Shown piece by piece: positions 1,917-64,000 of a DNA stretch of 64,000 nt. The notes under the pieces were generated by a model. That model made no database searches. It was not told where the DNA came from and saw only the letters and a list, made by a program, of their open reading frames with translations. The DNA is from an uncultured Ignavibacteriales bacterium (lineage in GTDB: Bacteria > Zixibacteria > MSB-5A5 > GN15 > FEB-12): the NCBI GenBank assembly GCA_964557855.1, contig CAZLBP010000014.1, positions 13,653 to 77,652 on the forward strand, read 5' to 3'. The position numbers were made by a program, and so were the translations under genes. Positions within the stretch are counted from its first letter, which is position 1; each line of letters starts with the position of its first letter.

Positions 1917-4539
1917 CACCTCTCTCCGGAAGCTACGGGCCGAAGTCGAGAAACACCCGGACCGGATTGAGCCGCGACTGCGACTGGCCGAGTGCTTTCT
2001 GACACATGCCAATGAACGAAGTATCTTGTCCGTTCTGGAGGCGCCGGAGGCCACCTCCTGGACTGAGAACACCACACATGAACGGCGCTACCGAGTCCTG
2101 AAAGCGTATGGGTTGGTCCATGAGAACCGATTTGTCGAGGCCGAAGAAACGGCCCGGGGATTGATACGAGACTATCCCGATGCGGTGGACGCTTACTTCG
2201 TCCTGACCTACGTGCATTTGTCTCTCCGGGAACTGGAGTCCGCCCAAGAGGCATGCGAGAAGTACTTCGAACAGGTTTCTCAGCTGCATTCGCGGGATAG
2301 CGGTCAGCACTACGCAATTACACATGCCCATACATCCCAGGCATACAATTTCCGCGGGACTATCGCTCAGGACCTGGGGGATACAGACAATGCGATCCGT
2401 CATTTCGAAAACGCGATCGAAGCGCATCACGGCAATCACCTGCCGTATCTGAACCTGGCTCGGTTGTTGGAGCGGCGGGAAGAGTTTGATCGAGCCAGAA
2501 CGATCGTTGCCGACGGAATCAAGGCCTGCAGTCAGGTCCAGGAGCTGCGCCTGTTGCAGGAACGCCTGGAGCGGAATACAACCGTTGCCGCCTGTATGAT
2601 AGTCAAAGACGAGGAAGAACTTCTGCCGGGATGTCTCGATTCGATCCGGGACTGGGTGGATGAGATTATCGTGGTCGATACCGGGTCATCAGACAAGACG
2701 GTCGATATTGCCCGGTCTTACGGGGCGAAGATGTTCTTTCAGAAATGGGAGGGCGACTTCTCCAAACACAGAAATTACTCACTGGACCAGGCTGCCTCGG
2801 ACTGGATCCTCATAATAGACGCAGACGAACGAGTGAATCAGGAAGACGTGGTCAAGATTCGGCGGCAAATAAGTGAGGAGACGTACCGCGCCTTAGCCGT
2901 CAACGTCTTCAACTATAGCGGTAAGTTCAACGAAAAGGTAACATCGCTGGCGTCAGTTCGTCTCTTCAAACGCGAACTGGGGTTGCGATATAAGGGAATC
3001 GTGCACAACCAACTTGTAATCGATCCGGCCGAGCCGGTTCTGCGCACCGACGTGCGGATCGATCACTTCGGATACGGTTTGTCCGAAGACAGGATGGCTG
3101 AAAAGGCGGCTCGGACTACCGACCTTCTGAAAATGCAGATAGACGAAAATCCCGCCGACGCTTTTGCCTGGTTCAACTATGCTCAGGTGTTGCTCGGTAT
3201 GGATTTCGCCAGGCACCCCGACAACCCCGCGGAGATCATCAAAGCCGCCTCACGGGCAGTGGAGTTGACCAGCCCGGACAGCCAGGATCGCAGCGAACGA
3301 GATATCCATCTCATGTCTCTGCAGCAACTGGCCCTCACTTCCTTTATAATCCAGGACTTAAGCGGGGCCGAAGAGTATGCCCGACGCGCCCTGAAGCACA
3401 AACCGGACTATCTCGATACCATACTGCTTATGGGAAACATCAGCTTGCGTCTCAATGAACCGGACGCAGCCGAATCGTATTTCAACTCATATTTGCGGAC
3501 GCAGAAGAAGTACGAGTACACGACGGGAGTTGATGAAATACTGTTGCTGCATCCGAAGAGCTTTCATCATGCTTACTACGGTTTGGGCATAGTAGCTGAA
3601 AGTCGGCAAAAGTGGGACAAGGCCCGACAGTACTACCTCGACGTTCTGGACTACAGTCCCGAGTTTCTGGACACCAACGCCCGGCTGGGACATATCTACC
3701 TGCGACTTCAGGAGCATGATTCTGCCATTACGTACTTCAAAAAACAGCTGGAACTCGAGCCTTCATCCCACTTGGCGGCTATCGGTCTGGCAGGGGTGTA
3801 TTACATCCGAGGCGAGAGCGAAGAAGCAGCCGGTTACCTCGAGCGGAGCCTGGAAGCTGTACCGGCTCAGCATCCGGCATTATTCGAATACGTCCGATTC
3901 CTCATGAGCATTGGCAGAGACACGGAGGCCGGGAGATTTCTGAAGAAAGCCGCCGAGCACCCTGATCCGGACCGGACACTGTTGCTTCGACTGGCCGAGA
4001 GCCATTTTGAACTCGGCGAATATAAACCGGCAGTACAGTTCTACTCCAAATTGGTTGAAACCGATCCCTCCAATTCGGACTGGCTTAACGATTTGGGAGG
4101 TTGCTTTTTCAGATTGGGCGAACTTGAAAAGGCCGAGCACTACTATGAGCGGGCAGCTACGGCTGCCGATTATTCTTGCATTTCGTTAAGAAACCTGGGT
4201 ATGACCCGAATCAAGGCGGGCAAATTGAGGGAGGCAGTCGAACCTCTTAGAAAGTACTTGCAGGAAAAGCCCTCGGATCTCGAAGTAAAAGTACTGGTTG
4301 CCGATCTTCTGACTGAAATTGAGGAATATGGTTCCGCCATCGTAGAATACGAGGGTCTGCTGCGTTCGCGGTCCACCGACACCGCCCTCTTGTTTAAACT
4401 CGCCGAGTGCTATCTTCATCTGGGGCATAGAGATTCGGCGCAACTGGGCTACCGAAGGATTCTGCAGGTTGATCCCGGACACAGGGCAGCCCGAAACCGC
4501 CTGTCAGAGCATGTCGCGGTGTCTGAAATAGTGCAGTGA
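1849..4539 (+). CDS. TPR - GT-A (GT2 family) glycosyltransferase - TPR protein
   Basis: GT2 core AACMIVKDEEELLPGCLDSIRDWVDEIIVVDTGSSDKT...ILIIDADE is flanked by many TPR repeats. I moved the start from the track position 1657 to ATG 1849, which is preceded by AAGAGG (1836-1841). It overlaps the upstream gene by 68 nt. Confidence 0.75.
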   Translation: MGRTTKTKSGRKNRPVKERTRTNTSLRKLRAEVEKHPDRIEPRLRLAECFLTHANERSILSVLEAPEATSWTENTTHERRYRVLKAYGLVHENRFVEAEETARGLIRDYPDAVDAYFVLTYVHLSLRELESAQEACEKYFEQVSQLHSRDSGQHYAITHAHTSQAYNFRGTIAQDLGDTDNAIRHFENAIEAHHGNHLPYLNLARLLERREEFDRARTIVADGIKACSQVQELRLLQERLERNTTVAACMIVKDEEELLPGCLDSIRDWVDEIIVVDTGSSDKTVDIARSYGAKMFFQKWEGDFSKHRNYSLDQAASDWILIIDADERVNQEDVVKIRRQISEETYRALAVNVFNYSGKFNEKVTSLASVRLFKRELGLRYKGIVHNQLVIDPAEPVLRTDVRIDHFGYGLSEDRMAEKAARTTDLLKMQIDENPADAFAWFNYAQVLLGMDFARHPDNPAEIIKAASRAVELTSPDSQDRSERDIHLMSLQQLALTSFIIQDLSGAEEYARRALKHKPDYLDTILLMGNISLRLNEPDAAESYFNSYLRTQKKYEYTTGVDEILLLHPKSFHHAYYGLGIVAESRQKWDKARQYYLDVLDYSPEFLDTNARLGHIYLRLQEHDSAITYFKKQLELEPSSHLAAIGLAGVYYIRGESEEAAGYLERSLEAVPAQHPALFEYVRFLMSIGRDTEAGRFLKKAAEHPDPDRTLLLRLAESHFELGEYKPAVQFYSKLVETDPSNSDWLNDLGGCFFRLGELEKAEHYYERAATAADYSCISLRNLGMTRIKAGKLREAVEPLRKYLQEKPSDLEVKVLVADLLTEIEEYGSAIVEYEGLLRSRSTDTALLFKLAECYLHLGHRDSAQLGYRRILQVDPGHRAARNRLSEHVAVSEIVQ

Positions 4540-11915: not shown

Positions 11916-11992
11916 GGGCGATTAGCTCAGATGGTTAGAGTACTTGCTTGACATGCAAGGGGTCACTGGTTCAATTCCAGTATCGCCCACCA
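11916..11992 (+). tRNA. tRNA-Val (anticodon GAC), CCA encoded
   Basis: I folded the cloverleaf by hand. Acceptor stem GGGCGAT/ATCGCCC, anticodon stem CTTGC/GCAAG with loop TTGACAT, T arm ACTGG-TTCAATT-CCAGT, and a 3' ACCA. Confidence 0.9.
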
Positions 11993-19410: not shown

Positions 19411-20979
19411 ATGATGAACAACACGATCATCCTGATTGCACTGGGTGTTCTGGTTGGCTTGGTCTCGTTCTTCGTGTCTTGGTTCCTGGCGCGCCGCGCT
19501 GCTGGCACGAGAGTCATCGAGGCCACCAATGAAGCCAAAAGGTTGGTTTCTGAGGCTAACAAAGAGGCTGAAATCAAGTTGAAGGAAGCCCGTCTCGAGG
19601 CTCGTGAAGAGCTTATGAAGCTCAAGAATGAGTTCGAGACTGAAGCCGATGCCAGACGCCGGGAACTGGAGTCGACTGAAAAACGGATTGAAGAACAACA
19701 GTCAACGTTAACCAAAAAGCTTGAAGTCCTGACCAACCGAGAAACCGATCTCGATAAGAGAGAGAAGAATCTGCTGACACGCGAAAAAGGAATATCTCTG
19801 CGCGAATCGGAACTCGAGGAGATAATAAACAATCAAAACGAGAAGCTCCAGAAGATTGCCCAAATGACGCCCGAAGAGGCAAAGAAGCAGCTAATGGACA
19901 ACATGTTGAGCGCCGCTCGAATCGAGGCGGCCCAATATGTGAAGGAAATTAAGGAAAAAGCCGAGGCGGATGCCGACAAAGAGGCCAAAGAGATAATCCT
20001 CTCTTCCATTTACCGATGCGCCGCCGATCACACGGTCGAAACGACAGTTTCGGTGGTCATTCTCCCTTCGGACGAAATGAAAGGGCGTATAATAGGCCGT
20101 GAGGGACGTAATATCCGTTCGTTCGAGACGGCTACCGGCATCGACGTGATAGTGGACGATACGCCGGAGGCGGTCATCCTTTCGGGCTATGATCCGGTCA
20201 GACGCGAGATCGCCCGCATGGCGCTTGAGAAACTGATTGTCGACGGGCGAATTCACCCGACTCGGATCGAAGACGTCGTAGAAAAATCAAAAAAGGAAAT
20301 GGAAGTGATCGTCCGTGAAGCTGGAGAACAGGCTTGTTTCGAACTCGGCGTCCACGGCCTGCATCCGGACGTGGTCAGGATGCTCGGCAAGCTCCATTTT
20401 CGTACATCTTACGGCCAAAATGTCCTGGCGCATTCCAAAGAAGTGGCTATGCTGTGTGGTTTAATGGCGGCGGAACTCGAACTGGACAGCACGCTGGCTA
20501 AGCGCTGCGGACTGTTACACGACGTCGGCAAGTCTATCGATCGAGAGACCGAAGGTACGCATACGCAGATCGGGGCGGACTTCATACGGCGCTACAAGGA
20601 ACCCGACGAGGTTGTCAACGCCATCGAATCGCATCACGGGGATGTACCGATGGTGGGACCGTTCCCGGTTCTGGTCCAGGCGGCCGACGCCATTTCCGGT
20701 TCCCGACCGGGTGCGCGCCGAGAGCCTCTGGAAGCGTATATCAAGCGCCTGCAGCAATTGGAGGAATTGGCTGACAGCTTCCGAGGAGTCTCCAAAGCGT
20801 ATGCCATTCAGGCCGGCCGTGAGGTCCGGGTAATCGTCGAGCATGAAACGCTGGACGATCTGGCAACGTCCATTTTGGCGGGAGACATCGCCGAGAAAAT
20901 CGAGCGTGAAATGCAATATCCCGGCCAGATCAAAGTGACCGTCGTCCGTGAAACCCGGGCGACTGAATTCGCGAAGTGA
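19411..20979 (+). CDS. rny: Ribonuclease Y
   Basis: N-terminal transmembrane helix, long coiled coil, KH domain ([15 protein letters not shown]) and HD domain (LLHDVGK...ESHHGD). Confidence 0.9.
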
Positions 20980-21021: not shown

Positions 21022-21074
21022 TGTTGCGGCAGGTCCTGCGAATCCACGGCAGGGGATGCGTATGTCCTGCCGCT
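21022..21074 (-). repeat. 53-nt imperfect-hairpin repeat, copy 1 (reverse orientation relative to copy 2 at 39401-39453)
   Basis: The reverse complement AGCGGCAGGACATACGCATCCCCTGCCGTGGATTCGCAGGACCTGCCGCAACA matches 39401-39453 at 46 of 53 positions by hand alignment. The arms GCGGCAGG/CCTGCCGC pair. Confidence 0.6.
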
Positions 21075-21305
21075 GTTATCTCGTAACGAATTACCTGCCA
21101 GGTCATCCGCCGCAGGCCAATTGACATTTGATCAGAACCTGACACCACAGGAACCGGGGTTTTGCAACATGCCCCGGCACTCCGAATTAGTCGTTGATTT
21201 TCAGACCGTATGGAGTTACACTGAAAGCAACATGTTTTTCACTTACAAGATGTCTTTTGGTACTGCCCACACGGATGTGTGGTCGGCTGGCGAGGGGATA
21301 CTCCG

Positions 21306-22157
21306 ATGTCGAATATGAAGATTCTGTTTGTGGCTGATGTATGCGGCAAGGTGGGACGGCAAGCCGCCGCACATATGGTGAAGCCGCTGCGCACCAAGTA
21401 CGAGGCTGACTACGTCATCGCCAACGTTGAAAACGCCGCCGGCGGTTTCGGCATAACTCCGGAAATGTCGCGCAAAATGTTCTCTTATGGCATGGACCTG
21501 CAGACGTCGGGTAACCACATCTGGGACCGATACGAGATCATTTCCTATTTCAATACCTCTCCCAAGCTTCTGCGGCCCGCCAATTTCCCGCCGGGCGTTC
21601 CCGGGGAAGGAATGCTCGTAGACACCGTGGCAGACAAGAAGATCGGTGTCATCAACCTTATGGGGCGAACCTACATGAAAGATATCGACTGTCCCTTTTC
21701 GGTCGGCCGGGAACTGGTTACCAGAATACGGACCCAGACCAAAGTCATATTCATAGACTTTCACGCCGAGGCAACTTCCGAAAAGCAAGCTCTGCATTAC
21801 TACCTCGACGGTCAGGTCTCCGCTGTTGTGGGGACCCACACGCATGTACAGACGGCTGATGAATACGTGAGTTCTTTGGGGACAGCTTACATCACCGATG
21901 CCGGCATGACCGGTCCGCACGACTCCATTATAGGCATGGAGAAAGAACCCTCTCTGCAGCGTTTTCTGACAGGGATGCCCCGTCGGTTTTCGACCGCATC
22001 GGAAGATGTGAGATTATCGGGAGTCTTTCTGGAGGTAGAGAGTGAGACGGGTCGGGCCGTCCGATTCGAGCGGTTCATTCACAAGTTCGATAGCGACAGC
22101 TTCAAGCCTGAAGACATCACCGGTATACCAAAAGAGCAAGTGACGCGAGAAACGTAA
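21306..22157 (+). CDS. ymdB: YmdB-like metallophosphoesterase (2',3'-cyclic-nucleotide phosphodiesterase family)
   Basis: MKILFVADVCGKVGR...ANVENAAGGFGIT...GNHIWD...DFHAEATSEK...GTHTHVQTADE; conserved rny-ymdB pairing. Start ATG 21306 follows GAGGGGA. Confidence 0.8.
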   Translation: MSNMKILFVADVCGKVGRQAAAHMVKPLRTKYEADYVIANVENAAGGFGITPEMSRKMFSYGMDLQTSGNHIWDRYEIISYFNTSPKLLRPANFPPGVPGEGMLVDTVADKKIGVINLMGRTYMKDIDCPFSVGRELVTRIRTQTKVIFIDFHAEATSEKQALHYYLDGQVSAVVGTHTHVQTADEYVSSLGTAYITDAGMTGPHDSIIGMEKEPSLQRFLTGMPRRFSTASEDVRLSGVFLEVESETGRAVRFERFIHKFDSDSFKPEDITGIPKEQVTRET

Positions 22158-33404: not shown

Positions 33405-35195
33405 ATGAGAGAGTTGATGTCCGGTAACGAGGCGATCGCGCGCGGTGCGTACGAGGCCGGAGTGAAACTGGCCGCCGCCTATCCGGGGACACCGTCGACC
33501 GAGATTCTGGAGACACTGGCAGCGCGATACCGCACGATATATTCGCAGTGGTCACCGAATGAAAAAGTGGCCTATGAAGTCGGTATCGGAGCCTCGATCG
33601 GGGGCGCCCGTGCGCTGGTAGCGATGAAGCACGTCGGCGTCAATGTCGCCGCCGATCCGTTCATGACCCACGCGTACACGGGTGTGAACGGCGGGTTTGT
33701 GCTGGTTTCGGCCGATGATCCCGAGATGCATTCGTCCCAGAACGAGCAGGACAACAGATACTACGCCAAATTTGCCCAGGTGCCGATGCTGGAACCGTCC
33801 GATTCGCAGGAAGCCAAGGACATGACGGTTACGGCCTTCGAGGTTTCCGAAATCTTCGACACGCCGGTGCTTTTGCGGGTGACGACGCGTATTTCGCATT
33901 CCAAAGGTGTGGTCGAGCTAGGCGAACCAACGGAAGGACCGGACGGCAAGTTCGTAAAGGACCCCGGCAAGTATGTCATGGTACCGTCCAACGCCCGCGG
34001 TCGACATGTAGTCGTGACGGAGCGGCTGGAGAAGTTGAGGAAATTCACCGAGGAGACGCCGCTTAATTACGTTGAGGATAACGGCTCGAATATCGGCATC
34101 ATCTGCGGTGGGATATCGTACCAGTATGCTAAAGAAATCCTGCCTGATCTGGATTATCTCAAGCTGGGATTCAGCTACCCGCTGCCGATGAAGAAGATCG
34201 CCGAATTCGTGAAGAGTCATGACATGGTATTGGTAGTCGAGGAGCTCGAGCCCTTCTATGAAGAGCAAATCAGAGCGGCCGGTATTGAAGTCGAAGGGAA
34301 GAAATACTTCGGCGTTCGTGGTGAGCTGTCTCCGGGGCGGGTGGCGGCCGGTTTCAAAGAGGCGGGTCTGCTCGACGAAGTCCATGCGGCAATGATCCCG
34401 CCCGAGGTCGACATGTTCCCGCGCCCGCCCGTGTTGTGTCCCGGCTGTCCGCATCGGGGCGCTTTCATGGCCCTGAAGAAACTCGGCGTGGCGGTGACCG
34501 GGGATATCGGTTGCTATACACTGGGCGTGATGAAGCCGCTCAATGCACTGGATACTTGCATCTGCATGGGAGCCTCGATCGGTAATGCGATCGGAATGGA
34601 GAAGGTCAAAGGTTCGAAAAAGGGGACGGTGGCCGTGATTGGGGATTCGACGTTTCTCCATTCGGGAGTGACGGGCCTGATGGACGCCGTATACAACAAC
34701 AGCAACGTGACCATAATCATCCTCGATAACCGCGCGACGGCGATGACGGGCGGACAGCAGCATCCCGCGACGGGCAAGACGCTGATGGGTGACGACGCCG
34801 GGGAGGTCGACATTCCGACCCTGTGTAAGGCGATGGGCGTGAAGAACTTTCGTTCCGTAGACCCCTACGATTACGACCAGGTACTCGATGTGATCAAAGA
34901 GGAACTCGATAAACCGGGACCGTCCGTCATTCATACTAACCGTCCCTGCGTGTTGATGCCGAAGCGGATCATGAACGAACCGTACACGGTTGACCTGGAG
35001 CTCTGCAACGCCTGTTCGGCCTGTTTCCGCATTTCCTGTCCGGCCATTGGGGCGGCCAAAGAGACAAACAAACACGGCTACCCTAAGGCGGTCATAGATC
35101 CTACCCTCTGTACCGGCTGTACGTTGTGTGCTCAGATTTGTCCGGTGGAGGCCATTGTCCTGAAAAGCCAGTTCGTAGGAGAGGGGGTGAAATGA
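33405..35195 (+). CDS. iorA: Indolepyruvate:ferredoxin oxidoreductase alpha subunit
   Basis: 596 aa with N-terminus SGNEAIARGAYEAGVKLAAAYPGTPSTEI, the TPP site GDSTFLHSG and C-terminal 4Fe-4S motifs CNACSACF...CTGCTLCAQICP. Confidence 0.9.
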   Translation: MRELMSGNEAIARGAYEAGVKLAAAYPGTPSTEILETLAARYRTIYSQWSPNEKVAYEVGIGASIGGARALVAMKHVGVNVAADPFMTHAYTGVNGGFVLVSADDPEMHSSQNEQDNRYYAKFAQVPMLEPSDSQEAKDMTVTAFEVSEIFDTPVLLRVTTRISHSKGVVELGEPTEGPDGKFVKDPGKYVMVPSNARGRHVVVTERLEKLRKFTEETPLNYVEDNGSNIGIICGGISYQYAKEILPDLDYLKLGFSYPLPMKKIAEFVKSHDMVLVVEELEPFYEEQIRAAGIEVEGKKYFGVRGELSPGRVAAGFKEAGLLDEVHAAMIPPEVDMFPRPPVLCPGCPHRGAFMALKKLGVAVTGDIGCYTLGVMKPLNALDTCICMGASIGNAIGMEKVKGSKKGTVAVIGDSTFLHSGVTGLMDAVYNNSNVTIIILDNRATAMTGGQQHPATGKTLMGDDAGEVDIPTLCKAMGVKNFRSVDPYDYDQVLDVIKEELDKPGPSVIHTNRPCVLMPKRIMNEPYTVDLELCNACSACFRISCPAIGAAKETNKHGYPKAVIDPTLCTGCTLCAQICPVEAIVLKSQFVGEGVK

Positions 35196-35797
35196 TGGAT
35201 CCGAAGAAGCATGACATTTTGATAGTGGGTGTCGGAGGCCAGGGAGTCCTGCTGGCATCGGAATTGATATCCGAAGTTGCCATGGGGGCCGGACTCGATG
35301 TGAAGAAAGCGGAAGTACACGGTATGTCCCAGCGCGGCGGCGTGGTTACCTCCCATGTCAAGATCGCGCCCAAAGTTTACTCACCGACCATCGAGTATGG
35401 CCAGGCAGACGTCCTGATGGCGTTCGAACAAGCAGAAGGCCTGCGGGCGCTGGATTGGATGCGCCAGGATGGGGTGGCTATTGTCTCGACGACCGCGCTG
35501 ATACCGGCCATAGTGACTTCGTCGAAACAATTCGATTATCCCAAGGATCCGGTGAGTCGTATGAAAAAGAAGGCGAGCAACGTGATAGCCGTCGACGCCG
35601 ACAAAATAGCCGGCGAGATCGGTAATCCCCGTGTCGTGAATACGATTCTGCTGGGCGTTTTGTCGAACCACGTACCTTTCGGCGTCGAGTTGTGGCTCGA
35701 TGCTATCAAACGCCGGGTCAAAGAGCGTTTCGTCGACATCAATCTCAAGGCCTTTGATTACGGTCGGCAGATCAGCTTATCGGAAGTCAAAGCATAA
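35192..35797 (+). CDS. iorB: Indolepyruvate:ferredoxin oxidoreductase beta subunit
   Basis: DILIVGVGGQGVLLASE...HGMSQRGGVV; ATGA overlap with iorA. Confidence 0.85.
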   Translation: MMDPKKHDILIVGVGGQGVLLASELISEVAMGAGLDVKKAEVHGMSQRGGVVTSHVKIAPKVYSPTIEYGQADVLMAFEQAEGLRALDWMRQDGVAIVSTTALIPAIVTSSKQFDYPKDPVSRMKKKASNVIAVDADKIAGEIGNPRVVNTILLGVLSNHVPFGVELWLDAIKRRVKERFVDINLKAFDYGRQISLSEVKA

Positions 35798-35806
35798 GGG
35801 GGAGCC

Positions 35807-36874
35807 GTGGCTGAGAAGATGCTGATCATCAACCCGGGCTCAACCTCGACCAAGGTGGCCCTGTTTGACGGCAAGAGCAAAGTCTCGGAGGAAGTTGTTC
35901 GTCACGACCCGGTCGAACTGAGTCACTTCGATAACGTCGCCGATCAGTTCGATTTCCGTATGGTGGCTATAGACCAATGGATCGACTCTCTCGGTCTCCG
36001 GAACGGCGAGCTGAGCGCGGTGGTCGGAAGGGGCGCGCCGTTGAAACCGCTGGAGGGCGGCTCGTACGCCATCAACGATGACTTACTCAAAGCCGTCCGG
36101 ACCATGCAATACTCCAACCATGCGTCCAATCTGGGGCCGATCATTGCGCACCATCTCAGCGAGCGGTTCGAGGTGCCGTCATTGATTGCCGACCCGATTA
36201 CGGTGGACAACTTCACTGACGTGGCGCGCGTGAGCGGGGTACCGGAAATCGAGCGCAAATGCCGGGCGCACGCGCTCAATATCAAAGAAGTCAGCCGCCG
36301 GGAGGCGATCAAGCTGGGTAAAACTCTCGATACCGCCAATTTCGTTACGGCCCACATGGGCGGCGGCATATCCGTCGCCGCGCTGAAAAGGGGGAGGATT
36401 GTCGATGTCAACGACGGATTGCTGGGTATGGGACCGTATTCGCCGGATCGCGCCGGGGCATTACCGATTGGAGGACTGGTGAAGCTCTGTTTCTCCGGCG
36501 AGTTCACCGAAAAGGAACTGATTGACAAGCTGTCCCGGAAATCAGGTCTGATGGGGTATCTCGGAGAAGCGGATTTGCGGAACGTGGACGATATGATCAA
36601 TGGTGGGGATGAGAAAGCGAAGCTGTATTTCGACGCTATGGCCTACCAGATTGCCAAGGAAATCGGTGCGGCGGCAGCCGTGCTGTGCGGCGAAATTGAT
36701 GCCATCATACTCACCGGCGGCATGGCCTACTCCCGGCGATTAGCAGACGAAATCACCAGGCATGTATCGTTTATCTCCGAGCTCCGCGTGGTGCCCGGTG
36801 AATTCGAGATGGAAGCTCTCGCTGCTGCCGGCAGGCGGTACCTGAACGGGGAAGAGGAGCTGAAAGAGTACTAG
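35807..36874 (+). CDS. buk: Butyrate (branched/short-chain acyl) kinase
   Basis: LIINPGSTSTKVALFDG...HASNLG...AHMGGGISV...LTGGMAYS. GTG start after AAGGGGGAG. Confidence 0.9.
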   Translation: MAEKMLIINPGSTSTKVALFDGKSKVSEEVVRHDPVELSHFDNVADQFDFRMVAIDQWIDSLGLRNGELSAVVGRGAPLKPLEGGSYAINDDLLKAVRTMQYSNHASNLGPIIAHHLSERFEVPSLIADPITVDNFTDVARVSGVPEIERKCRAHALNIKEVSRREAIKLGKTLDTANFVTAHMGGGISVAALKRGRIVDVNDGLLGMGPYSPDRAGALPIGGLVKLCFSGEFTEKELIDKLSRKSGLMGYLGEADLRNVDDMINGGDEKAKLYFDAMAYQIAKEIGAAAAVLCGEIDAIILTGGMAYSRRLADEITRHVSFISELRVVPGEFEMEALAAAGRRYLNGEEELKEY

Positions 36875-36877
36875 GAC

Positions 36878-37828
36878 ATGGTAACAACTCCCATACACTC
36901 TTCGGATCAACTCATCGAGCGGGCCGTTGCCATTGCCCGAGAGGGCCGGAAGAAGACCGTAGCGGTAGCGGTGGCTCAGGATGTGGACGTCATCGGCGCC
37001 GTTTCACAGGCACAGGACGACGGCTACGTTAACGGGATACTGGTTGGCGACAAGGCCAAAATCAAGGAACTGGCTGCCGATAATGGTATTTCTATAAAGG
37101 CCCTGGAAGTGGTCGATGAGCCCGATGTGAGTCAGGCGGCTCACCGGGCGGCTCAGCTGGCCTCGGAGAAAGAAGCTGATCTCATAATGAAAGGCTTCTT
37201 ACCGACATCGGCTTTGTTGCGGACGGTACTCGGCAAGCAGTATGGTCTGCGAGGCACGAATACGCTTTCGCACTGTGCCGTACTGGATGTCCCGGGTTAT
37301 CACAAGCTGTTGAATTTTACGGATGGCGGTATGGTAGTGAAACCCGACCGGGAGCAGAAACTCCAAATTCTGGAAAACGCGGTCCTGGTGGCGCGGGCGT
37401 TGCATTTGTCACCGGTCAAAGTTGCCGTTTCGGCGGCGGTGGACAAAATATCCGACAAGATGCCCCATACCCTGACCGACCACGACTTCGTGATCCCCCG
37501 GGCCATGAAGAAGCTGGAGGATATTGTCATACAAGGTCCCTTGACGCTGGATCTGGCCATGTCCGGGGAGGCTGCGGAATACTACGATGCCCGAGGGCTG
37601 GTGATCGGCGACGCCGATATCTTTCTTGTGGATTCAATAGAGGAATGCAATATCATCGTCAAGTCGCTCATTCAGTTCGCGGAGGCAGTGTTTGCCGGCG
37701 TGATTGTCGGCGCCAAGGTCCCGGTTTCGCTCGTGTCTCGGACAGATACGGTTAAGAATAAGAAGGCCTCACTGGCCATCGCCTGCCTGCTGGCGGATTA
37801 CTACTTGCAGAACGAGTTCTGGGACTAG
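36878..37828 (+). CDS. ptb: Phosphate butyryl/acyl-transferase (PTA_PTB family)
   Basis: 316 aa with PTA_PTB-family layout (KKTVAVAVAQD...GILVGD...DLIMKG...SRTD). Confidence 0.8.
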   Translation: MVTTPIHSSDQLIERAVAIAREGRKKTVAVAVAQDVDVIGAVSQAQDDGYVNGILVGDKAKIKELAADNGISIKALEVVDEPDVSQAAHRAAQLASEKEADLIMKGFLPTSALLRTVLGKQYGLRGTNTLSHCAVLDVPGYHKLLNFTDGGMVVKPDREQKLQILENAVLVARALHLSPVKVAVSAAVDKISDKMPHTLTDHDFVIPRAMKKLEDIVIQGPLTLDLAMSGEAAEYYDARGLVIGDADIFLVDSIEECNIIVKSLIQFAEAVFAGVIVGAKVPVSLVSRTDTVKNKKASLAIACLLADYYLQNEFWD

Positions 37829-37839
37829 GGGAGAGCGCA

Positions 37840-38784
37840 ATGGCAGCCTTTTCAAGATCTGATGCTTCGGAGATAAAATCATACGACGAGATTGTCGAGC
37901 GCGCCAGGGCGCATACCGAGACAAAGAAACCTCGCGCGGCGATAATCGAACCAGCGCATGGACACTACTTTCGGGCTTTCTCGCGCGCTGTGGAAAACGG
38001 TCTCATAGAGCCGGTTGTGATTGTCGGCGATCGGGAGAAGACAGAGAAGTCGGCCAAGGCGACCGGATTTGATTTACAGGCTGTGACGCTGGTTGAAAGC
38101 AGCGCCGGGGATGCATCCGTGCGGACGGCGTTAAAGATGGTCGGCTCGGACGAAATTGATCTCATCGTGCGCGGTTCGGTGCCGACCGACCTGTTCATGC
38201 ACGCACTGTTCGAAGCGGAAGGCGGTTTCGTGAGGAAGGGCCGCCTGGTTTCGCACGTGGCAACCATCAAGCCGGAACGGTACGGCAAGGTGATCCTTTT
38301 GACGGATGCGCTTGTCAACGTGGCTCCGAGTCTCAAGACCAAACTCGGGCTGGTTCAAAACCTCACGGCGGTGGGTCAAGCCATCGGTCTTGAGACGGCG
38401 CGGATTGCGGTACTGGCGGCGGTCGAAGTAGTCTACCCACAGATGCCGGTGACTGTCGACGGAGCGGTGCTGGCCAAGATGTCTGACCGGCATCAGTTCA
38501 AGGGCTGCTTTGTCGATGGTCCGCTCTCCTTTGATTGCGCCGTCGATCCGGTCGCTGCGGAGTCGAAAGGGATCACGAATTCGGAAGTGGCCGGTCGGGC
38601 CAATGCCATGCTGGCGCCGAATATTGAGACGGCCCACGGTATTTACAAGGCGATGGCCTTATACGGCAAGGCACAGATGGGCGGTGTTATTCATGGCGGA
38701 GTGGTCCCCGTTGCGATTGCGGCGCGGTCGGATTCGGAAGAGACGATTTTTAATTCGATAGCATTAGCGGTGTTGATGAGATAG
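37840..38784 (+). CDS. Second PTA_PTB-family phosphate acyltransferase paralogue
   Basis: 314 aa, collinear with the preceding gene (PRAAIIEPAH...VIVGD...DLIVRG...ARSD). Confidence 0.75.
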   Translation: MAAFSRSDASEIKSYDEIVERARAHTETKKPRAAIIEPAHGHYFRAFSRAVENGLIEPVVIVGDREKTEKSAKATGFDLQAVTLVESSAGDASVRTALKMVGSDEIDLIVRGSVPTDLFMHALFEAEGGFVRKGRLVSHVATIKPERYGKVILLTDALVNVAPSLKTKLGLVQNLTAVGQAIGLETARIAVLAAVEVVYPQMPVTVDGAVLAKMSDRHQFKGCFVDGPLSFDCAVDPVAAESKGITNSEVAGRANAMLAPNIETAHGIYKAMALYGKAQMGGVIHGGVVPVAIAARSDSEETIFNSIALAVLMR

Positions 38785-38790
38785 ATTTAC

Positions 38791-38853
38791 AGGGCACGGC
38801 CGGAATAGACCTGTTTCTCTGATGGCAGGTCTGAAGCAGATCTGCCCTACAAG
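38791..38853 (+). repeat. 63-nt direct repeat, copy 1 (its first hairpin is degenerate)
   Basis: Matches 39224-39286 at 50 of 63 positions by hand alignment. The core GATGGCAGGYCTGAAGCAGATCTGCCCTACAA matches at 31 of 32. It contains the hairpin GGCAGGTCTG-AAG-CAGATCTGCC. Confidence 0.6.
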
Positions 38854-38872
38854 ACTTTCTGTTCAAGTGAAC

Positions 38873-38965
38873 AATGGGTTCGTTTGGAAATAGTGTTTTT
38901 TCGAGGCGGGTCTTTTCCTGAAATGGGTTCGTTTCGTAATAGCGTTTTGTTTTTGCATTTCGAGG
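38873..38965 (+). repeat. Two-unit tandem repeat with a 49-nt period
   Basis: AATGGGTTCGTTTGGAAATAGTGTTTT..TTCGAGG (38873-38906) and AATGGGTTCGTTTCGTAATAGCGTTTTGTTTTTGCATTTCGAGG (38922-38965). Confidence 0.5.
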
Positions 38966-39081
38966 TTGTGATTGTGCCGCGGAGCAGGTTGGTTGAGTCA
39001 GTTGTTTTCGGGTGATGTTTTTCGTCATGGCTTTGTTCCTTTCTTCTATTAATGGGGGGAAGTGTCGGATTCACCATCGAG

Positions 39082-39252
39082 TTTGTAGGGATTGTGCGCG
39101 GAATTGACGCAGGTGTGTCGATCTGGAGATCGACGCAGCACCACGCTAAGCGAGGTTGGGCCTCCAAGTTGGTTAGTGCCGGACAGCTCGCGAGCTGTCC
39201 CTACAAAGATGGATGTCGACAGTAGGGCAGGTCCGCTTCGGACCTGCTTTTT
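39082..39252 (+). ncRNA. Candidate structured RNA (unclassified) ending at an intrinsic terminator
   Basis: TTTGTAGGG (39082-39090) can pair with CCCTACAAA (39199-39207). That stem encloses hairpin 39114-39137 (loop TGGA) and the perfect palindrome GGACAGCTCGCGAGCTGTCC (39181-39200). A terminator follows at 39227-39252. I found no convincing promoter. Confidence 0.25.
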
Positions 39253-39286
39253 CGATGGCAGGCCTGAAGCAGATCTGCCCTACAAA
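39224..39286 (+). repeat. 63-nt direct repeat, copy 2 (includes the terminator hairpin and a second hairpin)
   Basis: See copy 1. The outer arms GTAGGGCAG (39222-39230) and CTGCCCTAC (39275-39283) are also complementary. Confidence 0.6.
39227..39252 (+). terminator. Rho-independent terminator
   Basis: GCAGGTCCG-CTT-CGGACCTGC followed by TTTTT (39248-39252). Confidence 0.65.
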
Positions 39287-39336
39287 GCTGACTGGACCGC
39301 CGCGTTCGGGCGTGTTGAAAAACCCCAGGTGCAGTT

Positions 39337-39380
39337 GTGTCGGGTCTTGAGCCCGCGACAGCGGGATTGTGACCCGACAC
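39337..39380. other. Nested hairpin: 10-bp outer stem, symmetric 5x5 internal loop, 5-bp inner stem
   Basis: GTGTCGGGTC-TTGAG-CCCGC-GACA-GCGGG-ATTGT-GACCCGACAC. Confidence 0.5.
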
Positions 39381-39400
39381 GTAACTCAATCGCAGGCAGA

Positions 39401-39453
39401 AGCGGCAGGTCACACGGATCCAGTGACGTGGATTCGCAAGACCTGCCGCAACA
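39401..39453 (+). repeat. 53-nt imperfect-hairpin repeat, copy 2
   Basis: AGCGGCAGGTCACACGGATCCAGTGACGTGGATTCGCAAGACCTGCCGCAACA. Arms GCGGCAGGTC/GACCTGCCGC and CGGATCCA/TGGATTCG pair. Copy 1 is at 21022-21074. Confidence 0.6.
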
Positions 39454-39487
39454 CACAAATTGTACTTTTTTAGCACACCCGTTCTTG

Positions 39488-39520
39488 GGGGCGACAAGAA
39501 CGAAGTAGGGGCGACAAGAA
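39488..39520 (+). repeat. 13-nt direct repeat GGGGCGACAAGAA, two copies with a 20-nt period
   Basis: Copies at 39488-39500 and 39508-39520. The first copy sits in the hairpin GTTCTT...AAGAAC. Confidence 0.4.
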
Positions 39521-39583
39521 TGACGCAGATGTGACGAGACAGCAAGAAAGCCCGAAAAACCCCGATATTCACCCAAACTTTAG

Positions 39584-39612
39584 TTGACTCCATTTTCTAA
39601 GTCCCATATCAT
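39584..39612 (+). promoter_or_regulatory. Sigma70-type promoter for the manC operon
   Basis: TTGACT (39584-39589), a 17-nt spacer, then TATCAT (39607-39612), about 32 nt before the TTG start at 39645. Confidence 0.5.
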
Positions 39613-39644
39613 CAATGCATTATAACGACCGGAAGGATTGAACT

Positions 39645-40724
39645 TTGATTTACGGTATAATACTGGCCGGCGGAAGAGGTGAACGGTTCTGGCCGCTGTC
39701 CCGAATCGCGCGGCCAAAGCAGTTCCTCAAATTGACCTCCGAGCGCACAATGCTCGACGAAACCATTGATCGTGTGCTCCCGCTCATTCCGATGGAGCAG
39801 ATTCGGATAGTGACCGGCGAAGCCATGAAAGAGCTCATCGTCACGGCGGTCGAGAACATCGAAGGCATTAATGTACTAAGTGAACCGGTCGGGCGTAACA
39901 CATCGACCGCCATTGGTTTAGCTGCGGCGCATCTAGCTAAAGAAGATCCCGATGCCGTCATGGTCGTGCTATCGGCGGATCACCTGATTCGCCCTCCGGA
40001 GAAACTCCTTCGCATTCTGAAGACGGCCGCCAATATAGCATCGGAAGAGCCGAGTCTCATAACGATCGGTATTGTACCTACCCGACCGGACACGGGCTAC
40101 GGCTACATCAAGTTGGGAGACCTGTACCGTCAGGAGAACAGTTTCTACATACATCATGTCGAGGCCTTCAAGGAAAAGCCGACAGCGCCTACCGCACACG
40201 AGTACTATTACTCCGGCAACTATCTCTGGAACAGCGGCATGTTCGTCTGGTCGGTTGCGGCTATTCTGGAGGCGTTCAAGGGGTGTCATTCTTCCTTATA
40301 TGAGCTTCTGATGGAGTACCAGGAACACATCGGCACGCCCTCGGAGACTGAGGCCAAGCAGAAACTGTACGAAAAGGCGGAAGCCATTTCGATCGATTTT
40401 GCGGTGATGGAGAAGGCGGAGAACGTCTTAACAATCAAAGCCGACATTGTCTGGGACGATGTCGGCGACTGGCGGGCGCTTGAGCGGTATAAGGAAATGG
40501 ACTCCGACAATAACGTCATTGTCGGCGAAGCCGTGACGTTGGAATCGTATGAGACCACGATCTGCAACGAGGAACCGGGCATTGTGGCGTGTCTCGGTGT
40601 TTCGGATCTGGTGGTGGTGCGCGCCGGGGAGATAACATTGGTCGCACATCGAACCAAAGTCCAGGACATCAAGAAGCTACTGGCGAAATTGAGTGATGAT
40701 GAGAAGACCTCGAAGTACTTATAG
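39645..40724 (+). CDS. manC: Mannose-1-phosphate guanylyltransferase (nucleotidyltransferase domain only)
   Basis: IILAGGRGERFWPLSRIARPKQFL...VLSADHLI...GYGYIK; TTG start. Confidence 0.8.
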   Translation: MIYGIILAGGRGERFWPLSRIARPKQFLKLTSERTMLDETIDRVLPLIPMEQIRIVTGEAMKELIVTAVENIEGINVLSEPVGRNTSTAIGLAAAHLAKEDPDAVMVVLSADHLIRPPEKLLRILKTAANIASEEPSLITIGIVPTRPDTGYGYIKLGDLYRQENSFYIHHVEAFKEKPTAPTAHEYYYSGNYLWNSGMFVWSVAAILEAFKGCHSSLYELLMEYQEHIGTPSETEAKQKLYEKAEAISIDFAVMEKAENVLTIKADIVWDDVGDWRALERYKEMDSDNNVIVGEAVTLESYETTICNEEPGIVACLGVSDLVVVRAGEITLVAHRTKVQDIKKLLAKLSDDEKTSKYL

Positions 40725-63058: not shown

Positions 63059-63079
63059 ATGCAATCAAATTGATTGCAT
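63059..63079. promoter_or_regulatory. Perfect 10-1-10 palindrome upstream of the 63135 gene
   Basis: ATGCAATCAA-A-TTGATTGCAT lies about 55 nt upstream of the start codon. Confidence 0.35.
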
Positions 63080-63134: not shown

Positions 63135-64000
63135 ATGTGTAAGCGATATCTGACGTTATTCGTTCTCGCGGCGGTACTGCTTTGTGTAATGGGCGCCGAC
63201 GCACGATCCAAACACGATAGTAGAGAAGAGGCTCAGACAAGTTCCAATGCCCTGGAAGCGTCGCCGGCGAAAGCGGATACGATAGTGGATCCGCCGATCC
63301 CCTGGCCGCTCTATTTCGGGGTGCAGCAAACGGGGATAATTAATACCAGCTTTGACTGCTTTGGCAATATCGGCCTGTATTACTTCCCGTACGTGCAACA
63401 CGGTTTCCCGAGGGTTAGTTATGGCTGGTCGCTGAGTTCGTTTGAAGTCCCCCCCGGGAGCGATGTTGAGTACCTCTATGGCGGTTCGATTTGGGTCGGC
63501 GGCATTGTGGGAGATGACACCCTTGTTTCTACCGGAATGGACGGTTGGATTGGGATCCGTGAAATGTATCCCACCGGCAATCAACCGACTGTGACCAAGT
63601 TTTCCTACGCCACAGACTATTCTCTTAGAGCCGAATTCAATGATACCTCAGTTGTACTCGGTGGAGTTGATTATGTAGACGATGACCGGTCCCATATACC
63701 GCTAGGAATTCGAATTTCCAATCGCAGCCATGTGTGGCGTACTGAGCCGGAACAAAACACGGTCATCTATGACATGGTAATTCAGAATATCGGGAGTGAG
63801 ATGATAGAGGATGCCTATATCGGCTATCATTTTGACGGCGACGTATGTTTCAAGTGCTACTCCGAGACCGGGTCCTTCCATGACGATGTAAGCGGTGCGA
63901 TCAGATCACACGGTATCGGGTATATCATTGATGACGATGGTGAGCTCAATGATCCCATGGGACGCCACGTACCGAGAGCGTTCGGTTTCAAGATTCTGGC
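63135..64000 (+). CDS. Secreted protein, 5' part (runs off the window); paralogue of 54850..57471
   Basis: This ORF is not in the supplied track because no stop is reached. I translated it by hand: ATG 63135 follows GGAGGAGGAAGG, the signal sequence is MCKRYLTLFVLAAVLLCVMGA, and the frame is open to position 64000. It shares blocks with the 873-aa protein (PLGIRISNRSHVW vs PLNIAVKQSSYAW; HDDVSG vs QDDLSG). Confidence 0.65.
   Translation, partial: MCKRYLTLFVLAAVLLCVMGADARSKHDSREEAQTSSNALEASPAKADTIVDPPIPWPLYFGVQQTGIINTSFDCFGNIGLYYFPYVQHGFPRVSYGWSLSSFEVPPGSDVEYLYGGSIWVGGIVGDDTLVSTGMDGWIGIREMYPTGNQPTVTKFSYATDYSLRAEFNDTSVVLGGVDYVDDDRSHIPLGIRISNRSHVWRTEPEQNTVIYDMVIQNIGSEMIEDAYIGYHFDGDVCFKCYSETGSFHDDVSGAIRSHGIGYIIDDDGELNDPMGRHVPRAFGFKIL

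Follow-up and report, generated by a model that had tools for sequence, protein, structure and literature searches.

We analysed a window of 64,000 nucleotides (the whole stretch of DNA considered here), in which a ptb-paralogue and a manC-like gene are separated by 860 nt. With genes called by codon usage, no other real gap of the 64-kb window is as large, and the median intergenic gap is 21 nt. Two gaps that seemed larger or similar proved to be gene-calling artefacts, one being filled by the ORF 309-1916, which scores as coding, and the other by a gene that starts at 63136 and runs off the window end. The gap, hereafter the island, is non-coding DNA at the boundary of the ior-buk-ptb-ptb operon and the manC-SPOR-Sua5 operon. 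Treated as RNA, the whole island folds at -346 kcal/mol versus -287 +/- 5.7 kcal/mol in shuffles (z -10.5), and the same-sequence Logan assembly contig, from sample SRR7048221, breaks within it, at about 39345. An initial annotation had described a hairpin- and repeat-dense non-coding gap of this size, and its extent, its unusual folding and all the repeats and hairpins listed for it were recovered in place. The features of the locus are the following.

38784, stop codon of the ptb-paralogue (PF01515), left neighbour of the island
38789 to 38814, plus strand, R1', decayed REP unit (ACAGGGCACGGCCGGAATAGACCTGT), left partner of dimer 1
38824 to 38850, minus strand, R2, intact REP unit GTAGGGCAGATCTGCTTCAGACCTGCC, exact REP pattern match, nhmmer E 1.4e-8
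38854 to 39081, no strand assigned, T/G-rich spacer of the island, no similarity to 66 other loci
39082 to 39207, no strand assigned, possible wide head-to-head REP pair, inverted repeat of 19 nt, 79% complementary
about 39085 to 39100, R3', decayed REP unit, within the left arm 39082-39100 of the wide pair
39181 to 39204, minus strand, R4, intact REP unit with variant stem GTAGGGACAGCTCGCGAGCTGTCC, same GTAGGG tag, compensated stem
39222 to 39252, plus strand, R5, intact REP unit (GTAGGGCAGGTCCGCTTCGGACCTGC) followed by TTTTT, exact pattern match, nhmmer E 3.5e-8
39257 to 39283, minus strand, R6, intact REP unit GTAGGGCAGATCTGCTTCAGGCCTGCC, nhmmer E 3.4e-7
39337 to 39380, no strand assigned, strong nested hairpin, inverted repeat, -30.5 kcal/mol, z -6.6, no GTAG tag
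39399 to 39453, minus strand, GTTG long hairpin (GTTGCGGCAGGTCTTG, inner palindrome, TGTGACCTGCCGC), -33.9 kcal/mol, z -8.2 (39401-39453)
39488 to 39527, plus strand, two tandem 20-nt units (GGGGCGACAAGAAYGAMG), direct repeat, 85% identity
39584 to 39612, plus strand, manC promoter (TTGACT 39584-39589, 17-nt spacer, TATCAT 39607-39612), from promoter scan, 10 of 12 matches
39631 to 39637, plus strand, manC RBS GGAAGGA
39645, plus strand, TTG start of the manC-like gene (PF00483/PF22640), right neighbour of the island

The open reading frames of the island had been claimed to be spurious, and our data agree. Their codon-usage scores range from -0.08 to -0.15, compared with 0.21 +/- 0.07 for real genes and -0.09 +/- 0.16 for spurious ORFs; none of six island ORFs has a match in Pfam, and for a 106-aa ORF over the left half of the island, a search of 1.84 billion representatives returned no homolog at E<=0.001. 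Hence, neither codon usage nor a homolog or domain match marks a protein-coding gene in the island. Translated REPs make up most of the 138-aa plus-strand ORF; the minus-strand ORF 38750-39028 starts with ATG and is preceded, 7 nt upstream, by an AGGA motif.

The motif GGCAGGTC/GACCTGCC, which had been noticed to recur in several stems of the island, is the stem of a GTAG-tagged REP element. A unit comprises the tag GTAGGG and a palindrome of 9-10 bp, the tag reading CCCTAC on the opposite strand. Four of the five GGCAGGTC sites and all four CCCTACAA sites of the window lie inside the island, and GTAGGGCAG-type REP units within the 64 kb are confined to it. We count four intact units, all carrying GTAGGG, and two decayed ones, in the order +,-,(+),-,+,-, with stems of 8-10 bp and loops of 3-4 nt in R2, R4, R5 and R6. 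An nhmmer profile derived from 74 units of other genomes gave exactly three significant matches in the window, all of them in the island, the next best match having an E of 1.6; the decayed unit R1' was missed by this profile. A generic search for any GTAG with an adjoining stem of 7 bp or more was rejected as not discriminating (14 sites versus 14.2 in shuffles); five of these sites have 8 or more paired bases, of which the island holds three, and the others lack the GTAGGG tag.

Four of these units are arranged as two inverted pairs. Dimer 1 (38789-38850) begins 5 nt past the ptb stop codon and joins R1' and R2 head-to-head (-24.4 kcal/mol); R1' has ACAG in place of the GTAG tag and an eroded stem, while it stays in register with the intact unit 39222-39247 inside a 71-nt direct repeat. 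Dimer 2 (39222-39283) joins R5 and R6 head-to-head in a REPIN-like manner as an inverted repeat of 85% complementarity, folds into a single 62-nt hairpin (-44.8 kcal/mol, z -9.75) and matches a dimer of the Deferrimicrobium locus L031 with 81% identity over 75 nt. The 63-nt direct repeat first reported at 38791-38853 and 39224-39286 is indeed there and amounts to these two inverted, REPIN-like dimers; taken as 71 nt (38791-38861 and 39224-39294, 77% identity), it brackets 362 nt. Likewise, the perfect 20-nt palindrome found earlier at 39181-39200 belongs to R4 (-13 kcal/mol, z -3.8). The segment 39082-39207 is possibly a third REP pair, of wide spacing: its left arm TTTGTAGGGATTGTGCGCG (39082-39100) pairs with the right arm CGCGAGCTGTCCCTACAAA (39189-39207), the hairpin 39114-39137 and one further hairpin lie between the arms, and the 126 nt, closed by GTAGGGA/TCCCTAC arms, fold at -57 kcal/mol (z -3.75).

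Two direct repeats of 63-71 nt around a 362-nt interior, in a region where an assembly contig breaks, could also be taken for a conventional MITE or composite element of IS origin, one that has terminal inverted repeats and a target-site duplication and no relation to RAYT. We regard such an origin as extremely improbable, since the bracketing repeats are GTAG REP dimers that occur as isolated units in many genomes, no transposase remnant is present in the island, distant blastn against 72,556 plasmids gave no match, and the interior is not repeated anywhere else in the window or the compared loci.

The same REP family is found in other genomes. A degenerate 26-nt pattern matched 33 genome loci, with about one chance match estimated for the collection, and 24 metagenome loci; about 27 matches are spread over more than 20 contigs of one Deferrimicrobium MAG, and further ones are in an unclassified MAG, GN15, Zixibacteria and Ignavibacteria. 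Stop-free stretches of 200 codons or more enclose 6 of 63 matches (10%) but 71% of random positions, and the units often start a few bases from a stop codon. An inverted partner hairpin ending in CCCTAC accompanies 16 of the 63 matches, usually with a different, internally compensated stem, and stem variants keep their pairing, e.g. GGCAGGAG/CTCCTGCC and GGCAGAAC/GTTCTGCC. The family thus combines a short stem-loop palindrome, a GTAG foot, extragenic sites, and inverted dimers or alternating clusters, as expected of REPs. Many dispersed copies are seen in the Deferrimicrobium MAG, and the 64 kb of the source genome hold their copies in one island.

Furthermore, seven loci have a RAYT/Y1 transposase gene flanked by this REP family, namely the three Zixibacteria loci L064, L065 and L066, the Ignavibacteriaceae locus L069 (of the same MAG as the REP locus L022), and L040, L041 and L059. 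REPs stand on both sides of the RAYT gene in L040, L041, L064, L065, L066 and L069, i.e. the family has a cognate RAYT flanked by its own REPs in other genomes. tblastn with E. coli RayT identified the REP-adjacent ORFs in L040 (E 7e-28), L041 (6e-29) and L059 (2e-15), and Pfam Y1_Tnp is recognised, at about 1e-12, in the two full-length ORFs, those of L040 and L041. In the RAYT alignment no sequence departs from the HUH histidines or the catalytic Tyr (E. coli Y115); the REP-associated RAYTs are 34-39% identical to E. coli RayT, and members of the clade are only about 50% identical to one another. A RAYT gene flanked by REPs is termed a REPtron; cleavage and strand-transfer assays of single-stranded REP are available for the E. 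coli, S. maltophilia and Marinomonas systems, and TnpA-REP activity requires the GTAG tag and the hairpin (PMC8266576).

Within the 64-kb window no RAYT gene or remnant was found, and E. coli RayT, used as a tblastn query on the window and on the loci collected first, yielded noise only. Weak RayT matches in L007 and L023 and a weak RAYT-like match at 63336-63446 of the window all lie inside unrelated genes, and an inverted REP pair in L031 considered as a RAYT bracket encloses other repeats instead. When the ORFs of the 33 REP-bearing genome loci were compared all-against-all, no common neighbour gene emerged, which is expected because RAYT is single-copy.

With RAYT genes being normally bracketed by REPs, the spacing of the two island dimers (433 nt apart start to start, about 370 nt between) raises the question whether the island might be a real small protein gene or a gene wreck, such as a decayed RAYT, i.e. 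a REPtron remnant, or the GNAT whose (pseudo)gene occupies the same spacer in the relatives L036 and L037; the start codon and AGGA motif of ORF 38750-39028 could be read in the same way. However, the inter-dimer space is too short for a 166-aa RAYT, and tblastn of five RAYTs and the GNAT against the island gave scattered, non-colinear noise. Together with the spurious-like codon usage of all island ORFs, their empty Pfam search and the homolog-less left-half ORF, this makes a gene or its remnant highly improbable.

In its anatomy the island resembles the REP/BIME and RAYT (RayT/YafM, TnpA-REP; "REPtron") system of E. coli. Common to both are a GTAG tag beside an imperfect palindrome, extragenic sites often just 3' of genes, alternating orientation in clusters and, in other genomes of the family, a cognate Y1/HUH transposase gene flanked by the same REPs. 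BIMEs are known to bind IHF, gyrase or Pol I. Unlike E. coli REPs, the present ones have the stem GGCAGGTC...GACCTGCC, near-perfect over 9-10 bp with a loop of 3-4 nt, and their hosts are Zixibacteria and other uncultivated lineages; unlike in BIMEs, non-REP DNA of hundreds of bases separates parts of the island cluster. As in the REPINs of Pseudomonas fluorescens SBW25 (Bertels and Rainey 2011, PMC3116915), inverted REPs with a short spacer are foldable as one hairpin and singletons resemble decayed dimers, cf. dimer 1, whereas most dimers of our family in other genomes are heterodimers whose second hairpin has a different stem. The main text of Di Nocera et al. 2013 (PMC3733652) describes GTAG REPs as having stems of 5-13 bp, predominantly head-to-head dimers, clusters that include flanking DNA and an association with transposase genes, and the island family fits this GTAG REP super-family, including the SMAG elements of S. 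maltophilia, as outlined there; a GTAGGG-containing consensus was not found in that main text.

Altogether, we consider the island to be, with a probability of roughly 0.85, a BIME-like cluster of GTAG-type REP elements that accumulated in non-coding DNA at an operon boundary. It is a selfish hairpin repeat of a known kind and as such an ordinary feature, here in the little-studied phylum Zixibacteria. The initial proposal of a nest of REP/MITE-like elements holds for the parts that bear the recurring motif; canonical REP units cover about 170-250 of the 860 nt, and the other ~70% of the island is not canonical REP.

This non-REP part contains several further repeats. The T/G-rich spacer has no significant fold (z -0.65). 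A two-unit repeat reported at 38873-38965 could be confirmed as two 27-nt cores (38873-38899 and 38922-38948; 89% identity, period 49); it is weak, and Tandem Repeats Finder did not report it at 38873-38948. The hairpin 39114-39137 and the nested hairpin 39337-39380, both found where they had been described, the latter with the stability given above, have the 5' motif GCAGKTGTGTCG in common; they carry no tag and have no further copy in the window or the compared loci. Of another kind is the GTTG long hairpin, which has the REP outer stem with GTTG replacing GTAG. The earlier observation of a 53-nt hairpin at 39401-39453 with a distant second copy was correct: the copy lies inverted at 21022-21074 on the plus strand, downstream of the RNase Y gene, and is 87% identical. 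Locus L008 of GN15 (at 4372) and locus L047 of a metagenome (at 1934) have the same architecture with another inner palindrome, and one base pair of the outer stem is compensatory. Scanning metagenomes for the 53-nt hairpin core together with a piece of the inner palindrome gave 0 matches, because the inner palindrome varies and the pattern is too specific. The GTTG long hairpin belongs to a second, REP-related long-hairpin family; in the S. maltophilia system, a GTTG tag variant abolished cleavage (PMC8266576). Finally, the tandem 20-nt units, 57-96 nt upstream of the manC -35 box, account for the reported 13-nt direct repeat at 39488-39520 (GGGGCGACAAGAA at 39488 and 39508); they are possibly a regulator site, and are not conserved in the relatives examined.

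The stability of the nested and the GTTG hairpins (z -6.6 and -8.2) could point to a different role of the island, or of its non-REP part (38854-39180 and 39290-39580), namely as the source of structured small RNA (a single species or several, lineage-specific) or of a processed 3'UTR RNA of the ior-buk-ptb transcript, with the REPs as passengers. Such a role would agree with the conserved outer and changed inner stem of the 53-nt hairpin, which recurs 3' of the RNase Y gene and in two further genomes, and with the long ptb-manC spacers (413 and 731 nt) that each of the three relatives compared has at this position. A presence at several unrelated extragenic sites is, however, typical of a mobile repeat and not of a single-copy RNA gene. 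Moreover, Rfam 15 at gathering level returned only a tRNA at 11916 for the whole window, and at E<=5 the best island matches were a eukaryotic miRNA (21 bits versus a threshold of 57) and a fly lncRNA, i.e. nothing relevant, so that the island matches no curated RNA family. A promoter scan detected no sigma-70-like promoter inside the island on either strand. When the ptb-manC spacers of the syntenic L035, L036 and L037 are compared, the manC promoter/RBS/start block is the only conserved one, and the rest of the island shares nothing with them: the L035 spacer holds a single REP, the L036 and L037 spacers a split GNAT gene. In the spacer of the relative with 58% ptb-protein identity there is one REP of the same family (GTAGGGCAGGATC...GATCCTGCC). 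The structured or 3'UTR-derived RNA that had been put forward for the island thus gained no positive support, and we consider it unlikely.

The island is also not the leader of manC, as had been stated before, since manC has its own promoter at 39584-39612, which is found by the scan and conserved in relatives. At its other side, the REP cluster may well supply the end of the upstream transcript. The hairpin 39222-39247 (-19 kcal/mol, z -4.4) followed by TTTTT resembles rho-independent terminators, being a GC-rich hairpin of 9-12 bp directly followed by five U. Unlike dedicated terminators it is a mobile-repeat copy with a short U-tract, and a simple consensus terminator scan made no call at 39222-39252. 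Of the terminator previously placed at 39227-39252, hairpin and U5 are present, as part of a REP unit, whereas the scan did not flag it; R5 with UUUUU may well be the most likely terminator of the ior-buk-ptb-ptb transcript.

Several observations stand against the REP-cluster explanation, namely the low REP coverage, the restriction of the family to the island within the 64 kb and the window's want of a RAYT, and in addition the tag-less single-copy hairpins, the cleavage-abolishing tag variant of the GTTG hairpin and the unflagged R5.

If they work as in E. coli, Stenotrophomonas and Pseudomonas, the REP units of the island would be non-autonomous. A single-copy RAYT (TnpA-REP, an HUH/Y1 endonuclease) would recognise the folded hairpin and the GTAG tag on single-stranded DNA, cut, and rejoin nearby, so that REP copies would spread into extragenic spaces and persist there, especially just 3' of genes; mobility in the source genome would presumably depend on such a RAYT. 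The hairpins would form 3' structures in the upstream operon transcript, where they may act in termination or stabilise the mRNA, and manC would be transcribed from its own conserved promoter. The other ~70% would be lineage-specific filler as in large REP clusters, made up of the T-rich spacer, the two strong tag-less hairpins, the REP-related GTTG long hairpin and the 20-nt tandem repeat.

For annotation, recognising the REP cluster accounts for an odd, assembly-breaking, hairpin-dense gap, and keeps the region from being mistaken for a new RNA and five spurious ORFs from being called genes. No new mechanism is implied by the cluster. It adds Zixibacteria and uncultivated lineages near them to the range of the REP/RAYT system, and for these it provides a usable consensus, GTAGGG[CA]AGG...CCTKCC, plus a RAYT clade. 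A literature search for the motif returned thrombin-aptamer and primer papers only. In the library searched, no paper linking REPs to Zixibacteria was found.

One 27-nt REP hairpin, GTAGGGCAGGTCTGCTTCAGACCTGCC, is nearly base-for-base common to MAGs of at least four distant lineages (Deferrimicrobium, Ignavibacteria, Zixibacteria/GN15 and an unclassified bacterium), where it accompanies the RAYT clade of about 50% mutual identity. REPIN-RAYT systems are generally viewed as vertically inherited and lineage-specific. We tentatively entertain, as a rather speculative idea, that a REPtron moved between phyla in sediment communities or that RAYT recognition freezes the REP foot for very long periods, with the GTTG hairpin perhaps being a new REP-derived class or RNA element. 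If true, either inter-phylum transfer of a REPtron or a frozen REP foot would sit uneasily with the vertical, lineage-specific view, and the sharing of one REP sequence across phyla could inform how REPs and RAYTs co-evolve or move between lineages.

At 860 nt, the gap between a PTA_PTB gene and a ManC-type nucleotidyltransferase gene is the largest in the 64-kb window, where the median gap, for a gene set selected by codon usage, is 21 nt and the real gaps closest to it in size are 377, 299 and 270 nt; two seemingly larger or similar gaps are gene-calling artefacts. The upstream operon encodes a TPP/ferredoxin oxidoreductase, a POR subunit, an acetate/butyrate-kinase-family protein and two PTA_PTB proteins, and a SPOR-domain gene follows manC. 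The initial annotation described the gap as a hairpin- and repeat-dense island, and this observation is confirmed: the sequence is as it stated, all repeats and hairpins lie where it placed them, every listed hairpin folds far better than its own shuffles, and the island folded whole reaches a z of -10.5 relative to shuffled sequences. Least convincing is its 'tandem repeat' at 38873-38965, which amounts to two 27-nt cores at a 49-nt period, with neither a significant fold nor a Tandem Repeats Finder call.

The motif GGCAGGTC/GACCTGCC, which had been noted in several stems, is the stem of a unit with an invariant foot GTAGGG on its 5' side (CCCTAC on the opposite strand), and all four CCCTACAA sites of the window fall within the island. 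Such GTAG-tagged palindromes (REPs) and the remaining features are arranged as follows.

Features of the ptb-manC gap and its flanking genes
37840-38784, PTA_PTB gene, upstream of the island and last gene of its operon
38789-38814, + strand, decayed REP unit
38824-38850, - strand, intact REP unit R2
38854-39081, T/G-rich stretch, non-REP
39085-39100, + strand, decayed REP unit
39114-39137 and 39337-39380, tag-less, non-REP hairpins with common lead-in GCAGKTGTGTCG
39181-39204, - strand, intact REP unit R4, whose variant stem is the 'perfect 20-nt palindrome' of the initial annotation
39222-39247, + strand, intact REP unit R5
39257-39283, - strand, intact REP unit R6
39399-39453, copy of a 53-nt hairpin
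39488-39527, non-REP tandem repeat GGGGCGACAAGAA(C/T)GA, two 20-nt units, 57-96 nt upstream of the manC -35 box
39645-40724, ManC-type nucleotidyltransferase gene, TTG start, downstream of the island

R5 lies inverted to R6 with 85% complementarity, and the pair folds into one 62-nt hairpin of -44.8 kcal/mol. The '63-nt direct repeat' is two head-to-head REP dimers, the left one half-eroded, and what had been read as a canonical terminator consists of R5 and the T-rich spacer of the dimer. In its GTAG-foot palindromes, inverted dimers and alternating cluster, the island matches the features by which GTAG-type REPs, REPINs and BIMEs are defined (PMC3733652, PMC3116915, PMC2817692). A profile derived solely from units in other genomes has three significant matches across the 64 kb, and all three fall in the island. 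The island's five or six ORFs are spurious: they lack Pfam matches, score -0.08 to -0.15 on codon usage as against 0.21 +/- 0.07 for real genes, and in a translated comparison with 426 kb of related loci resemble only REP translations. For the ORF over the non-repeat left half, a search of 1.84 billion representatives gave no homolog, and a search of the island for remnants of a GNAT gene or of RAYT, the Y1/HUH transposase of REPs, found none.

A 26-nt degenerate pattern, GTAGGGCAGRTCYGNNNNRGRCCTGC, derived from three canonical units, matched 33 stretches of a genome collection lacking the source genome, with about one chance match expected by our own estimate. One Candidatus Deferrimicrobium MAG holds about 27 matches over more than 20 contigs, an unclassified MAG five, a GN15 MAG two, a Zixibacteria MAG one, Ignavibacteria MAGs two and a Lacipirellulaceae MAG one, the last probably by chance. 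Flanks are unrelated from copy to copy, many copies begin a few bases past a stop codon, and only 10% lie inside long stop-free stretches, versus 71% of random positions. One copy in four clearly forms a head-to-head dimer; its second hairpin terminates in CCCTAC on a stem that differs in sequence and is internally compensated. Another intergenic nest of about 600 nt with REP dimers (L031 350-950, Deferrimicrobium MAG, DATMWY010000204.1) also carries two copies of a different repeat of about 70 nt (cgagtgtggcatctcca...ccccca[ag]agt[cg]aatttgggggtggcaccc), a motif with further copies 3' of REPs in L009, L020 and L026.

The pattern also matched 24 metagenome contigs, and in three of them a tblastn search with E. 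coli RayT (MG1655 record) located a RAYT adjoining the REPs (E 7e-28, 6e-29 and 2e-15). Pfam assigns the two full-length ORFs (L040, L041) to Y1_Tnp at about 1e-12, and each has a REP 15-20 nt 5' of its start and a REP dimer right after its stop. A homolog search with a REP-adjacent RAYT returned 845 proteins, several labelled Zixibacteria or FCB-group transposases, and five of their loci were inspected. In three, all Zixibacteria and one of them on a 3.84-Mb contig (L064, L065, L066), GTAGGG[CA]AG-type REPs flank the gene, with stems differing by compensated changes (GGTC/GACC, GAACC/GGTTC, GGTTTG/CAAACC). An Ignavibacteriaceae MAG (L069) has head-to-head dimers on both sides of its RAYT and a stand-alone dimer elsewhere (L022), and at L067 the REP flanking the RAYT is another one, GTAGGTCGAAAC. 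The alignment shows invariant HUH histidines and an invariant tyrosine matching E. coli Y115, the residue changed in a catalytic mutant (PMC8266576). Since REPs flank RAYT genes in other genomes and these residues are preserved, the island's family is a genuine REP-RAYT ('REPtron') system. At L064 3121-3172 (Zixiibacteriota MAG), 3' of the RAYT, a second REP type with another stem (GTAGGGGCAAACCCGAGTGTTTGCCC...GGGTTGACACACAGGTCAACCCCTAC) lies beside the main type, which suggests several REP classes per REPtron.

The alternative of a REP/MITE-like nest, offered initially beside a structured ncRNA, holds for the motif-bearing parts; canonical REPs cover only about 170-250 of the 860 nt. The 53-nt hairpin represents a second repeat family, GTTG[CT]GGCAGGTCTTG-[inner palindrome]-TGTGACCTGCC[GA]C, with an inverted copy at 21022-21074, between the RNase Y (19411-20979) and YmdB (21279-22157) genes, and copies at two loci that also hold GTAG REPs (L008 4372-4425, GN15 MAG; L047 1934-1987, metagenome contig). 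It shares the outer stem of the REP, with one compensatory pair and no GTAG tag, and its inner palindrome is swapped wholesale; we infer a variant that arose from the REP and bears a structured loop. Cleavage in S. maltophilia is abolished by a GTTG tag (PMC8266576). Separately, a perfect 21-nt palindrome, ATGCAATCAAATTGATTGCAT (63059-63079), which may be an operator, occupies a 138-nt gap before a gene that starts at 63136 with a signal-peptide-like sequence and runs past the window end.

For the non-REP remainder, a structured ncRNA is a possible but unsupported reading. In the nearest relatives the ptb protein is only 58-62% identical, gene order is kept, and so is a long spacer, of 413 nt (L035) or 731 nt (L036, L037). 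The former is AT-rich and holds two small hairpins and a single REP of the island's family (GTAGGGCAGGATCCTCCTTGTGATCCTGCC); the latter contains a GNAT acetyltransferase gene broken by an in-frame TAG. On both contigs (L036 2099-2572 and L037) this TAG stands just ahead of the motif DILIDPDYQRRGIG (...SSICYL*DILIDP...), so that the gene is a pseudogene or the stop is recoded. When aligned, the spacers share only the manC -35/-10 boxes and RBS. The site is thus an insertion-tolerant operon boundary rather than the seat of a conserved RNA. The tandem 20-nt units, not conserved in these relatives, could be a regulator-binding site. An independent assembly (L001, Logan contig SRR7048221_70495; window ~33640-39345) is 100% identical over the aligned island region and terminates inside hairpin 39337-39380, which suggests that the island breaks short-read assemblies.

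By analogy with the characterised systems, RAYT would bind the folded single-stranded REP via its hairpin and GTAG foot and cut nearby, and such cutting would generate and maintain REP copies in extragenic DNA. Any effect on the host would likely lie at the RNA level: REP hairpins would form the 3' end of the ior-buk-ptb-ptb transcript, with R5 plus U5 as the best terminator candidate (-19 kcal/mol), and manC transcription would then begin at its own promoter. A mildly surprising by-product of our study is that essentially one REP hairpin, GTAGGGCAGGTCTGCTTCAGACCTGCC, occurs near-identically in Deferrimicrobium, Ignavibacteria, Zixibacteria, GN15 and unclassified-bacterium MAGs (L002-L034, L040-L063), a sharing across several phyla that may reflect either transfer between them or deep conservation.
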